From: Octopus vulgaris
Lineage: Eukaryota
Direction: 5' to 3'
Length of the DNA: 64,000 nt
NCBI GenBank assembly: GCA_951406725.2
Contig: OX597814.1
Location: forward strand, 217,310,001-217,374,000
The notes beneath the pieces were generated by a model that had not been told where the DNA came from, made no database searches, and worked only from the letters and a program-made list of their open reading frames with translations. This document shows, piece by piece, positions 29,285-55,630 of this stretch (position 1 is the first letter of the stretch; each line of letters starts with the position of its first letter). The position numbers were made by a program, and so were the translations under genes.

Positions 29285-29499
29285 TAGATCGTTAGCTCCT
29301 ACACGCACTTTTTCTCTCCTTGTTTCTCTCCTTGTTTCTCTCCTTGTTTTTTTCCTGTGTATCTTTCTGTCGAAGAGCGTAGGCTCGAAACGTAAAAGAC
29401 TTGTTCTATTTCTATTCCTGAGCGCCATACTAATACATTTGTTTGTTTGTACTCCACCTGCCTTCGTCTTTTGTTTATTTTCGTAAAGCTTCCCGTTTT
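29285..29499 (+). mobile_element. Hammerhead-module family P2 (putative PLE pseudo-LTR)
   Basis: Matches 42312-42490, 49058-49197 and 55448-55630(-); ends in (TA)n. Confidence 0.75.
29363..29398 (+). ncRNA. Minimal type-I hammerhead-like motif, variant core
   Basis: CTTT-CTGTCGA-A-GAGC(GTAG)GCTC-GAAA-CG-TA-AAAG. Confidence 0.6.
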
Positions 29500-29610
29500 A
29501 TATATATATATATATATATATATATATATATATATATATATATATATATATATATATATATATATATATATATATATATATATATATATATATACATATA
29601 TATATATATA

Positions 29611-30297
29611 CTTGAAGGCTCGGATTTCCTTTTCAAACAAGGACAGAGGTTCACAATTAAAACTAGTTTCACCAGTGCCTCTGAGAACCTAATTTATGTA
29701 ATAACCTGCTCGTGTTGCAGTCATCAGTACATTGGACAAGCGAGTTTAACTTTGAGGAAGAGAATCACTCTGCATAAGGAGCAAATCCGTTTCCCGCAAT
29801 ACAAACAAATTCCTCTTAGTGAACACATAGAAAAATGTGCAGGTAACATCAAACCAAATTTTACAGTCTTCCCTTTCTACCGGTGCAAAGACACAATCTC
29901 TCAACTAGAACGCTTAAATAAAGAAACTTTCTTCATTGAAAAATACAAAACGCGTCTTAATAAGCACGCATAACCAATTTGTATATTTTTACATATTACA
30001 TCACTGTACATAAATCCACTACTAAACAAGGCCCCATTTTTTTAAACCTGTCTCTTTTCTGTATACATATTTATTCGCCACCCTAAACCTAAACAGTTAT
30101 CTCCCTTACACACAACACTAACAATAATAACAACCAATTACCTCCCTTTACTTGTCAACTTGTAAAATCATTCACTCGTGAATTTCATTAGAAACAACAT
30201 GGACCCATTTTCTTCTTCAGAAAAATATATTTTCATATAAATTAAACATTGTATCATGAATAGCGATTGCGAAACCGGTTGATACATTAAAAATTAT
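29611..30297 (+). mobile_element. 5'-truncated Penelope-like element: GIY-YIG endonuclease end, 3' UTR and degenerate hammerhead
   Basis: [40 protein letters not shown], stop at 29973; GTATC-ATGAATA-GC..GC-GAAA-CCGG-TT-GATAC at 30251-30285; (TA)n on both sides. Confidence 0.85.
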
Positions 30298-30399
30298 ATA
30301 TATATATATATATATATATATGTGTGTGTGTGTGTGTGTGTGTGTGTGTGTGTGTGTGTGTGTGTGTGTGTGTATGTATATATATACATGTTAGTTCCC

Positions 30400-30661
30400 T
30401 TTTGGAATTGAATTTCGAAGCGATAAATGTTATCAATGATAGCATGTAAATATTGATTTTAAAAGTCCTTCTGGATACGCTTTGAGTGGGATTCGAAGTC
30501 ACGCTTTGGTCCAACGGTAGAACGCCTGTCATGCTTGTACGAGATGTGGGTTCGAATCCCTCGGTTAGCTTTCGACTTTTACTATCTAAATATTTTTCAG
30601 CCCAATATTTACATTCTGTTATATATAGCATTTACGTGCTTCGAGATTCAATTCCCCAAAA
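30400..30661. mobile_element. Element with about 55-bp imperfect terminal inverted repeats enclosing a tRNA-like sequence
   Basis: Arms 30400-30455 and 30603-30661; A-box TGGTCCAACGG and B-box GGTTCGAATCC at about 30503-30569. Confidence 0.6.
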
Positions 30662-30738
30662 TAAGATGAATTAATTCACGTTCTGTCATATGACAACAAT
30701 AACAACAATATATATATATATATATATATATATATATA

Positions 30739-51590: not shown

Positions 51591-53880
51591 TAGCAACGGT
51601 CTGATAGTACATTTCCAGTCTGACCTACATATAGTTCTTCACAATTCGGGCATTTGATGCAGTAAATTAAATTTCTGCATTTGCAGTTCATATTCGCGTT
51701 TCTGAATATTTTTCCGGTATTCGTGTTCTTATATTGGCCGGTATGTATGAATTGGCATGTGCAACATCGGCTATCATTGCATTTAGATACAGTGAATGAT
51801 TGGTCTTTGTTGCTAAGGTCAAAATTTGCCTTTGTTAATAATTTTTTCAAGCTTTTAGCCTGTCTTTTACTAAGAACCATGGCTCGATCTGTGATTATAT
51901 CTTTTAATTCATTATTTTGAGCAATGATTGGTAGGTTTTCTTTGGCAATGTTGAAGATATTCTGGTGACTTGGGTTGTGCGTCACAATAAATGGTATGAC
52001 TTGTTCCTGTTTTCTTCTTCTTTTCGTTGTCCTCAGTTGTTGTGTGGGTATTTTTATAGCCCGCTGTATGCCATTTTCTATAAGTAGAGACGGGTATTTT
52101 TGTTTGAGCAAAAATTCTCTTAGTTATGTTAGGCGTTTGTGCCTGATATTTGCATCTTCTACAATGGTACAAACTCTTCTGGCTAGGCAGTATGGGATGT
52201 TGCATTTTGTATGTGGTGGATGTCACGACTTAAAATTCAGGCATTGGTGTGTATCCGTGTGTTTGTAGTAGATATCTGTGGTAATGGTGGTGTACTTTTT
52301 AATTACCATTATATCTAAGAATGGTAATTTGGTACTACTCATCAGCTTGGAGAGATGGGTGTAGGTTGTTCAGGAGGATATTGAACTCTTCCAGAGTATT
52401 TAGAGATTCTGTCCAGATTATGAAACAATCGTCAAGGCATATCTTCCATGCCTTTTCAGTATAATTTCTAAATCCAGTGCTAAAGTTTTCCTCTATTTAT
52501 TGGTAGATTTGTTGTTCAAGATATCCCATTACAGAATTCGCATAAATGGGAGCAAACCTCGTTCCCATCGCCGTGCCTTTAATTTGGATGTAATTCTTTC
52601 CATTGAAGAAGAAGGTGTTGTTTTCCAGACTAAGTTTGACAGTGTCTAATATAAATGGAACTGTGAATCTGTTGAGGATCACTTCTCTATATTTTTCTAC
52701 CCAGCATCTAATCGCCTTTATTCCTAAATCATGTGGAATATTGGTGTTAAGGCTTACCACATCAAAACTAAGTAGAAGTGAATTTATTTCAGTTGTTTTG
52801 GGAAGATGCGACAGGAAGTCGAAGTCATCCCAGATGAAACTGGTTATGTAGGTTCATAGTGGTTTCAAAACAATGTCAATAATATTGCTTGGACAGTGGA
52901 TAGGGAATGCTGGACCAGCTTCAATCGGCCTATGTTTTAGGTCTTTTGGATGCAGTAATTTTATGTACTCACTTTCTTGTTCTTTTACTGCATGCTGAAT
53001 ATCTTTTGATTTATGTATCTTGGGTAAACCGAAAGTTAGAAGTTGCTTGGTTTTGCTCGAAATTGGTGATGTAGTCTCTTTCGTTATCGGTAAGTGAGTT
53101 GTGGGTGTTTTGAAACAAGGTTGTTGATCTTCTTCATGATGGGGTGTTTTATATTTGTAGGAATTTCACAATAGGAAGTTGTGTCCTTCAGTTGGTCTTC
53201 AACCAAATCCTTATGCTATTTTGCATCCATAATAGCAATTGCACCCACTTTATCTGCTTGTTTAATTATTATTATTGTTGTTTGATCGTTTTGTATACGT
53301 TTAAGTGCAGACATTTCGGATTTATTAATGTTTGGCCTAACATTACTATTGTGTCTAAGAGGGAATTTTGACAGGATATCAATGTATTGGTCAAGATAGC
53401 TGTTTCTTCCTTTTGGTGGGCTGAAATTTGATTTATTCTTTACTAGTATCATTACTTTTATTAGTGAAGAATTATCGTAACTTACGACAGAATTTCTGGA
53501 TATCCTCCTTTAGTTCTTAGTGGTTGGCTGATGGTGTAGGTGTGAATTTCAGTCCTTTTGACAGAAGTTGGATTTCATCATTGTCAAGATCTCTTTTTGA
53601 TAAATTAATTATTTTAGGATCTATACGTTCAGTTGTTTTGGGTATGTTTCCTCTTGGACTTTTTCTTTCTCCGGTGTTTGTTGTCCTGACGTTAAAAAAC
53701 GGATGTCCTCTGTTTTTAATTTATGTTCCTGTTGATGTTTGCTTGATGGACTTTGCGTTTTTGGCTGTGGCATTTTACTTGGTTTCGTTATGTTTTCTCT
53801 CCTGGTTTTGGTATTATGTATATTACTTTTCAATTCCTTGTTAGTATTCTTTTTAACAACCTGGGGAATATAATCTAGGT
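51590..53880 (-). mobile_element. Penelope-like element (Neptune-type) RT + GIY-YIG pseudogene
   Basis: IINLS..LSKGLKFTPTP, IKQADK, FDVVSLNTNIPH, QIKGTAMGTRFAPIYAN, DDCFIIW, LPFLDI, HPPHTKCNIPY, Cys linker CNDSRCCTC, NLIYCIKCPNCEELYVGQTG; many frameshifts; begins at (TA)n. Confidence 0.92.
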
Positions 53881-54342
53881 ATATGTATATATATATATAT
53901 ATATATATATATATATATATATATATATATATGTATATATACATATTGTGTGTGTGGGTGAGTGTGTGTATGTATGTATTTTTGTATGTATACATATGTA
54001 TATATATATATATATATGTGTGTGTGTGTGTGTGTGTGTGTGTGTGTGTGTGTGTGTGTGTGCGCGTTTGTGTGTGTATGCGTGCGTGTCTGTGTGTGAA
54101 TATGTATGTATGCATGTAGTACATACATACATTCACACACACTTTTATAAGAAAAGTGGTGACAGTTTCTTCGAAATTTCGGTTTGCTGTCCTTCATTGG
54201 ACAGTTCGAAGTCACTGTCATCGCTTTTTTTATAAAGGTAATATAAATACGTAATCTACAGAAGGTATTGAATAATCCTTCAGTTCAATGCTAAATTATT
54301 TCTATCATAACTCGACATAAGGTGATGAGACGTGTTAGCAAA

Positions 54343-54560
54343 GGCAGCGAGTTACAGAATCTTTAGCACGCCAGAGAAAAAGTGCTTAGCGGCATTCCTT
54401 TTGGGTTTAAGTTCTGAGTTCCAATTCCACCAAGGTCAACTTTGTCTTTCAAACTTTTACTGTCGATAAAATGAGTACCAGTTGAGCTCTTGGGTCGATG
54501 GTATCGACTAGCCCCAGCCTCCAAAATTTCAGCCCTTGTGCCTACTGTAGAAAAGATTTT
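54343..54560 (+). mobile_element. SINE family C
   Basis: Head GGCAGCGAGTTACAGAATC, core, tail CCTTGTGCCTACTGTAGAAAAGATT. Confidence 0.82.
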
Positions 54561-55447
54561 TAACTCATTTCAATATCAGTATAATATTGTTACTAACTAT
54601 AAAATTTTTATTACACTATTGTGAGCGAACTACCAAGTATTATATGTAACCTTAAAAAAAGTGAAAATAATAAGTTCTTATATGTATGCGGTATTTTCCG
54701 GTACTTTTACGTACTACACTTACTTGATATCTCAAGAGAATGACAGAGTTCTATTTAAGGATGATTAGATATTTTTCCTTTGTGTCATACGATCCACACC
54801 CATGTCTGTCAAAACAACTTAGTAAATCATGGAATAAAATGCTTTGTTAATTCGTCATAACTATTTGAGAGTGACGTGTCAAACGCACGAGCACTCACTC
54901 GCTCACTCACTCACTCACTCGCTCACTCACTCACCCACTCACTCACTCACTCACTCACTCACACACAATAAAACTTCAAATACTCATACGTACGTACACG
55001 TACTTCTGAATGTGTAATTTTAGTTTATTTGTGCTTATCATTTCCATTTCTTTTTATCAGAATTTGTGAACATGATGTTCCCTGTGACCAATCACCACAT
55101 TTCTGATGATTAGTTATATCCTGGCCAACTTAATTGAACCATATCTTAGTTACAAAAATATGTTATAACTTATTTCTCTGTTTCTCCCTCTCTTCTCCCC
55201 CACATATACCTACATATACATATGCATGTGTGTGTATGGATGCATGGATATATATAGATGTATCTATGTATATATATATATATATGTGTGTGTGTGTGTG
55301 TGTGTGTGTGTGTGTGTGTGTGTGTGTGTGTGTGTGTGTGTGTATGTGTGTGTGTGCAGGTATGTATGTGTGTGTGTATATATATATATATATATATATA
55401 TATATATATATATATATATATATATATATATATATATACATATATAT

Positions 55448-55630
55448 AGGGAGAATTCACGAAAAAAAAAATCAAAAGACGAAGACAGCTGGTGTAGAAA
55501 ACAAACAGATGTTTTAGTATAACGCTCAAGAATTGCAAAAGTCTTTTATGTTTCGAGCCTACGCTCTTCCACAGAAAGAAACACAGAAAGAAACAAGGAG
55601 AGAAAAAATGTGTGTAGTGGCTACCGATCA
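55448..55630 (-). mobile_element. Hammerhead module P2
   Basis: Minus strand CTTT-CTGTGGA-A-GAGC(GTAG)GCTC-GAAA at 55543-55578; ends in (TA)n. Confidence 0.75.

Follow-up and report, generated by a model that had tools for sequence, protein, structure and literature searches.

The window analyzed here is a 64,000-nucleotide stretch of Octopus vulgaris DNA (assembly GCA_951406725.2, contig OX597814.1, forward-strand positions 217,310,001 to 217,374,000) that contains four copies of P2, a hammerhead motif in which the adenosine at position 6 of the catalytic core is replaced by uridine (A6U). P2 is a minimal type I hammerhead located in the pseudo-long terminal repeat (pseudo-LTR) of an autonomous Penelope-like retrotransposon. 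U6 is the consensus of the family throughout the genome, and the motif remained under purifying selection after A6U. What selection keeps appears to be the hammerhead fold, and we give about an even chance to the reading that P2 is an attenuated hammerhead that still works, slowly, as a dimer and aided by the element's own protein.

Hammerheads in Penelope-like repeats are known already, as are the rare core variants U3-A8, A6C, and U4C; the nearest published natural variant is A6C. No A6U hammerhead was found in the literature searched, a set that excludes the largest variant survey (Lunse et al. 2017), which may list such molecules. A6U is also absent from the searchable supplements of PMC3088659 and PMC4209133 (one file of the latter not covered), and the one PMC4209133 supplement searched for them has no octopus or CUGU-core entry. 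The role of hammerheads in Penelope-like elements is puzzling in that they occur universally but are weak, and elements with catalytic mutations can still insert in vitro. The P2 lineage represents a natural experiment on this question because it was amplified over ~0.4 synonymous substitutions per site despite a change in the core that should greatly reduce activity, its motif remaining under selection.

The P2 hammerhead and its host element

The P2 core is canonical at every position (C3, U4, G5, N7, G8, and A9 with G12, A13, and A14) except U6 and is combined with a short stem I, one extra nucleotide after A9, a G10.1-C11.1 pair, and a palindromic 15.2-16.2 segment. A15.1-U16.1, the ACGU palindrome of helix III, and a following A or U at H17 are found in all nine P2 subfamilies. 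This architecture is similar to that described by Cervera and de la Pena 2014 (PMC4209133) for minimal hammerheads from pseudo-LTRs of Penelope-like elements in metazoans with regard to its stem I of 4-5 bp, the extra nucleotide between A9 and G10.1, the G10.1-C11.1 pair, the palindromic 15.2-16.2 without loop 3, the terminal-repeat position, and the predominance of solitary 5'-truncated copies. It differs in its core, CUGUNGA rather than CUGANGA (the variant reported there is U3-A8), and in its stem II of 4 bp as compared with the longer helix described in that source. The sequence-only reading had assigned U6 to all four copies in the window, and this is correct (Table 1); its single formula for them, CTTT-CTGT[C/G/T]GA-A-GAGC(GTAG)GCTC-GAAA..AAAG, holds apart from GCAC instead of GCTC in the 3' strand of stem II in the copy at 49073 and CAT for CGT in the copy at 55543. 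At E ≤ 1, an Rfam scan of the window returned nothing but simple-repeat noise and thus no hammerhead family.

Most P2 copies are dispersed and 5'-truncated and end in (TA)n ~100 nt past the motif, and the longer ones have a decayed GIY-YIG-type frame upstream. In a search with that frame (50 loci), the motif lies 334-1176 nt downstream of 46 of the 53 endonuclease matches. One locus, L132, is complete: two 533-bp repeats, 99.06% identical and both with U6, flank an open frame of ~1,077 codons, with the upstream repeat ~750 nt before the first Met. The frame encodes a reverse transcriptase (RT) domain (RVT_1, E 1.1e-7), a CX4CXXC linker (CSRPRCRTC), and a C-terminal IYCISC..C..LYIGQT motif of the GIY-YIG type, seen directly. 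Pfam GIY-YIG gives no match at E ≤ 0.01 for this protein; it is precomputed for several homologues that are 45-54% identical to it, and over its full length the frame can be aligned, at 30% identity, with the GIY-YIG-positive protein of a distant family, Q, described below. Independent full-length copies with U6 in both repeats occur at L131, L136, L138, and L139; in these and L132 the repeats are ~290-1,050 bp long and 82-99% identical, and the motifs are 4.3-4.5 kb apart. Loci L133, L141, and L142 have the same flanks as L132 and are counted as the same insertion. The terminal repeats of L131 and L138 are only 82-87% identical, i.e. they belong to different subfamilies or to separate insertions.

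The element thus combines one open reading frame (ORF) for RT and a GIY-YIG at the C terminus with pseudo-LTR direct repeats that hold the hammerhead, the features of endonuclease-containing (EN+) Penelope-like elements. It shares with the Neptune clade (Craig 2021, PMC8557442) the RT, the CX2-5CXXC linker, the C-terminal GIY-YIG, the (TA)n bias, and the partial tandems; the linker is also found in Nematis, and a Neptune affiliation is suggested by the linker and (TA)n features. Canonical hammerheads are called universal in C-terminal-endonuclease elements in the same source, whereas P2 and two other lineages of the octopus genome have non-canonical cores that a CUGANGA descriptor would miss. 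Because an intact frame lies between near-identical U6 repeats in L132, U6 belongs to an autonomous, recently mobile lineage and not to a parasite or retrozyme. Non-LTR retrozymes are described in a 2026 preprint as non-autonomous, short head-to-tail non-coding units with no ORF, and this class does not fit P2, whose copies are scattered ends, truncated to varying extents on the 5' side, of an element that contains an ORF. Neither a relative of the P2 element protein nor the U6 pattern was found in viral contigs.

Fixation of U6 and conservation of the motif

The assembly that holds the window (2.8 Gb, 227 contigs) contains 19,224 exact matches to the U6 pattern and none to its reversed control, so that the pattern is far beyond chance. 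The corresponding A6 pattern has 364 exact matches; by eye, 29 of the first 100 listed carry P1-type loops (P1 is a sister family, described below), and the number of A6 in P2 context extrapolated from those 100 is ~260, or 1.7 times the 147 matches of a T>A control at position 4. All 52 endonuclease-anchored P2 copies have U at position 6 (64 rows less 12 that came from searches with motif patterns, were mis-matched, or contained an indel); among 28 bystander copies, 26 have U, two have C, and none has A. All nine subfamilies are U6, including the oldest, in which the first 100 of 290 genome-wide matches contain, by eye, 87 U, 8 C, and 5 A. An A6 ancestral subfamily of P2 was considered and is unsupported, the oldest subfamily being mostly U and A6 reaching only 1.7 times the control. 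The variants listed for reads or contigs from organisms C, D, and E include no change at position 6, which is weak evidence; N7 and H17 are among the best supported variants there. The genome-wide consensus that the sequence-only reading had asked for is therefore U6 and not A6.

The P2 RT-endonuclease has 642 homologues at E ≤ 0.001, the best with 53-58% identity. Among 80 related metagenome loci, scanned with a tolerance of one core mismatch, 17 contain 20 hammerhead motifs, of which 19 have CUGA, one has CCGA, and none has CUGU; seven of the 20 sit 120-160 nt behind the ORF match. Since A6 is present in all 20 outside motifs and also in sister families within the octopus genome, U6 is derived. 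The stems covary in an alignment of 10 outside and 13 octopus motifs (22 distinct sequences): 95.5% of 176 cells are paired, seven of eight pairs have two-sided change, and the score is reached by none of 500 shuffles, a count that leans toward the structure because a structure scan had selected the outside motifs and the sequences share ancestry. Within P2 alone there is no two-sided compensatory change across the U6 subfamilies, only the one-sided gain of a fifth stem I pair in S6-S9. The C-G/G-C difference in stem I between P1 and P2 had been offered as covariation, but it reflects the single event that split the two families and says nothing on U6.

Conservation after A6U was assessed in a set of 208 P2 copies, collected with a pattern that allowed 2-3 mismatches in stem II and deliberately enriched for A6. 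Rules based on the flanks placed 169 of these copies in nine subfamilies (S8 and S9 are based on five and four copies). Divergence of the subfamilies from their own majority declines from 9-10% to 0.9%. Between the oldest and the youngest, ORF codons 600-960 differ at 50 of 152 four-fold sites (33%; 0.43 corrected), 13 of 289 second positions, and 27 of 289 residues, with two mis-matched rows remaining in the S2 and S9 ORF majorities, and the flanks differ at 51 of 139 positions. In contrast, the 36-nt motif differs at one position (Fisher p = 1e-4 versus four-fold sites; not different from second positions). Across all nine subfamilies, two of 36 motif columns vary as compared with 71 of 139 flank columns, and these two are N7, where U, C, G, and A are all used, and H17, which is A or U and never G; both are positions that the hammerhead consensus leaves free. 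C3, U4, G5, G8, A9, G12, and U16.1 are unchanged over 0.43 substitutions per site, and the three CpGs of the motif never changed. The chance that two columns land in the seven free ones is 0.03 (post hoc). Because change is confined to N7 and H17 while four-fold sites diverged by 33%, purifying selection continued after A6U, and conservation exceeds neutral family identity. Variation of this kind is the pattern expected of a kept hammerhead fold. U6 alone cannot be counted as selected, since a single site would remain unchanged over ~0.43 substitutions per site in ~6 of 10 cases under neutrality. At 21 of the loci without a proper motif match, re-examination found interruptions, deletions, or decay and no diverged subfamily.

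Cleavage, folding, and the possible function of P2

Two looks for cleavage in vivo were made. In two RNA-seq runs from the related organism C (~6% of each read, apparently unstranded), no pile-up of ends occurs at the predicted P2 cut site at a depth over the motif of ~1,900 (run X23), and a canonical P1 copy is likewise without one; the comparison has no positive control. Insertions that start near the cut site show no excess at position 1.1: ~31 junctions among 100 listed of 106 matches are spread evenly by eye, with 6, 3, 5, 10, and 7 having 0, 1, 2, 3, and 4 or more leading A, and most of the 100 are intact motifs with indels (first 30 checked). This spread is as expected from even truncation with TA microhomology. 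Only five P2 copies in hand lack the 5' part of the motif, one of them beginning at 1.1. From their 3' end, ~100 nt downstream, nearly all inserted copies extend across the motif, and the templates were therefore mostly copied uncut. In predicted folds, stem II forms variably, giving no strong signal, and the dimer hammerhead (-12.9 kcal/mol) lies far above the cofold minimum (-28.0). The 3'-terminal tract of the element (Table 1) contains the blocks GAGCG, ACTAATAC, and CTTCGTCTTTTGT, all invariant across P2 subfamilies; the CTTCGTCTTTTGT block is complementary to the 3' half of the hammerhead. Pairing of this invariant tract, ~70 nt downstream, with the motif 3' half has a predicted probability of 0.8-0.98 in five of nine subfamilies, is weak in the other four, shows no covariation, and leaves U16.1 and H17 bulged. 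A rod hairpin driven by U6 was set aside as weak (z-scores of -1.1 to +0.2 for P2 copies, with a canonical relative forming a similar rod), as was the downstream GAGC as an alternative partner for stem II (probability above 0.1 in one of nine subfamilies).

A6U was probably acquired once, and all other core and stem positions were kept through the nine subfamilies. If P2 is an attenuated but working hammerhead, transcription from the upstream repeat would yield tandem RNA, and the element protein would bind near its 3' end and start reverse transcription ~100 nt behind the motif; copy end points and the Poseidon element of Anolis carolinensis, PAc (Frangieh 2024, PMC11167929), suggest that the RT start region lies in the 3'-terminal tract. 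Because reverse transcription would start downstream and have to read through the uncut motif, low activity may be tolerated or favored: a fast ribozyme would cut the template, whereas a damped one could be borne. The fold would be kept because slow, dimeric, protein-assisted cleavage still serves some step. By comparison with A6C, U6 should lower the cleavage rate. The natural A6C hammerhead of phage Bcep176 has a kobs below 0.1/min (PMC3088659), with 0.004-0.05/min in Mg and 0.3/min in Mn (Naghdi 2020, PMC7151607). P2 is like it in having a natural change at position 6 with the rest of the core intact (Perreault 2011, PMC3088659); Bcep176 is, however, an A6C at one phage locus, assayed as slow and Mn-preferring, whereas P2 is an A6U in a multi-thousand-copy animal retrotransposon with a minimal, dimer-type scaffold, known from sequence. 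That protein binding may license cleavage is suggested by PAc, whose hammerhead cleaves only with the element protein added. PAc resembles P2 in having a hammerhead upstream of an internal RT start that sets the copy 3' end, AT-rich targets, and no RNA-seq ends at the cut site; it differs in its canonical core, which overlaps the ORF start, as compared with the U6 motif ~750 nt before Met and the Neptune/Nematis-type linker of P2. We consider doubtful, though worth stating, a more specific scheme in which A6U and the downstream tract would together hold the RNA uncut for read-through, protein binding at the 3' end would free cleavage, and U4C in the two other lineages would represent parallel solutions. 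If it were true, Penelope-like elements would generally use weakened uridine turns for tuning, and searches by descriptor would have missed them.

Several observations weigh against a working ribozyme. Neither look for cleavage gave a footprint, although without a positive control, and the predicted dimer fold is unfavorable. Minimal hammerheads are barely active (PMC4209133), A6C in another ribozyme gives 3.6e-6/min at 0.3 mM Mg (PMC7151607), and in a full pairwise scan CUGA-turn mutants are all low except the C3-G8 swap (PMC9901934). Catalytic mutants of PAc still insert in vitro (PMC11167929). The generic consensus leaves loop II and the extra A free, yet in P2 they too are invariant, and the constraint therefore goes beyond catalysis. 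Selection cannot be shown from the five 5' core positions taken by themselves, which are too few; three changes at N7 began at a CpG, and the repeated N7/H17 states could be conversion between subfamilies. Some of these points favor a non-cleaving motif, whose fold would be kept as a binding or folding element for the RT-endonuclease near the start of reverse transcription while U4 and A6 are free to drift, and to this close rival we assign a real, if minority, chance. The absent footprint, the invariant loop II, and the normal insertion of PAc mutants fit it, as does repeated erosion of the same substructure in the U4C masters of P1 and of the unrelated young Q, which adds U-U at 10.1-11.1; pairing of the downstream tract, with U16.1 and H17 bulged, would explain a free H17 without catalysis. 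Set against this are the seven core positions unchanged over 0.43 substitutions per site, an H17 that is never G, the lack of covariation in the downstream helix and its weakness in four subfamilies, and the published natural A6C and U4C variants, which keep activity or function (PMC3088659, PMC7151607). Cleaving and non-cleaving readings are inseparable by sequence because both conserve the same fold.

The same invariance, loop included, could instead reflect sequence-specific binding to DNA, the block being a pseudo-LTR promoter that drives the downstream ORF and the hammerhead shape an inheritance that no longer matters. Promoters are reported in pseudo-LTRs of Penelope-like elements (PMC6765202), and the upstream repeat of L132 is suitably placed before its first Met. 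We think this unlikely since variation is confined to two sites left free by the RNA fold (by the post hoc estimate above) and homologues change sequence while keeping pairing. Less likely still, to the point of being hard to sustain, is the view of the motif as a neutral relic that a successful element merely carries along at its 3' end. Dispensable hammerhead activity in PAc in vitro and Naiad elements, which thrive without canonical hammerheads (PMC8557442), would be compatible with one, but the one difference in 36 motif positions against 50 of 152 four-fold sites and 51 of 139 flank positions already contradicts it, and the endonuclease-linked loci without a motif are interrupted, deleted, or decayed, none being a diverged subfamily. 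The sequence-only reading had opposed a variant ribozyme to a dead recognition signal, and with U6 fixed and the motif conserved this remains the right pair of rivals, whereas its supporting arguments (P1 as a yardstick, stem I covariation, and selection of U6) are not borne out in the form given. U6 P2, U4C P1, canonical old P1, and the cognate protein represent wild-type substrates with which to tell catalysis from recognition. Tens of thousands of hammerhead-derived motifs in this one genome escape Rfam and CUGANGA descriptors.

Motif copies in the window and neighboring families

Table 1. Hammerhead motifs and repeats in the window (positions counted from its first letter)
Feature	Positions	Strand	Core	Remarks
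P2 minimal hammerhead	29363..29398	+	CUGUCGA, U6 at 29370	predicted cut after 29394; S6/S7 type; within 5'-truncated Penelope-like 3' end that extends to ~29498 and terminates in (TA)n
P2 minimal hammerhead	42367..42402	+	CUGUGGA, U6 at 42374	predicted cut after 42398; S4; element end ~42310-42489, back to back with P1 copy
P2 minimal hammerhead	49073..49108	+	CUGUUGA, U6 at 49080	S2 type, an old subfamily; stem II decayed at one position; element end ~49196
P2 minimal hammerhead	55543..55578	-	CUGUGGA, U6 at 55571	S4 type; decayed palindrome in helix III; element end ~55449
P1 hammerhead, minor group	42216..42250	-	CUGAAGA, canonical	element end ~42101
P1 hammerhead, main subfamily	49301..49335	+	CCGACGA, non-canonical (U4C)	element end ~49441
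3'-terminal tract of P2 element	42418..42489	+		downstream of hammerhead
~390-bp repeat	523-907, 3984-4372, 5236-5627, 6205-6590, 15020-15423, 24570-24945, 36490-36841, 49989-50392			eight copies, probably a young SINE (short interspersed nuclear element)

The two P1 copies match their earlier description. P1 has 14,145 exact matches genome-wide, 8,764 of them with CCGAC (U4C); its main master is U4C, and the CTGAC copies are best read as CpG decay. P1 had been taken for a canonical sister of P2, which applies to the minor CTGAAGA group, including the copy at 42216, and not to the main subfamily. The 1.5 kb upstream of the P1 copies collected here contain no ORF. P1 and P2 ends adjoin twice in the window (42216-42402 and 49073-49335) and also in L008 and L167, as expected because (TA)n targeting is common to both; P1/P2 heterodimers in a single transcript would be possible only where both are on the same strand. 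Locus L055 is a P1/P2 chimera joined inside the common stem II block. Downstream of the endonuclease, L290 (position 3064) and L279 have lost the 3' half of the motif by deletion; the L290 deletion spans from the stem II GAGCG to the invariant GAGCG ~40 nt downstream, a short direct repeat common to P1 and P2. A stem-I-broken sister family, P4, was dropped because only one such copy was present among six matches.

Q is a distant young Penelope family with a 775-codon RT/GIY-YIG frame and 4.27-kb tandem units, represented in the window by a decayed copy at 51338-53800 (-). The family, with intact relatives at L091, L093, and L097, has an upstream ORF that overlaps the 775-codon frame in another frame. 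The Q hammerhead-like motif has U4C and a U-U mismatch at 10.1-11.1, and a link of P2 to the decayed ORF at 51338-53800 was rejected since Q bears this different motif of its own. A further U4C occurs in another family at L284, where a hammerhead-like motif ~750 nt downstream of the endonuclease match has CCGA as its core and a stem II that is long. The GIY-YIG end of a third Penelope-like family is present at 29611-29970 (+) (Pfam E 3e-6), followed at ~30250-30285 (+) by a hammerhead-like motif that is decayed and whose palindromic helix III is longer, and then by (TA)n. A further P1 3' fragment, starting at the motif GAAA, occupies 28960-29070 (+) and abuts 28351-28886 (+), which is presumably a mariner-type transposase remnant.

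ARAGORN found no tRNA in the window. The eight copies of the ~390-bp repeat are 93-98% identical, with a 5' end that is tRNA-like by eye. Non-LTR reverse-transcriptase ORF fragments are located at 12481-13671 (+) (weak zf-RVT, E 7.5e-4), 11043-11534 (+), and 59015-60049 (+).

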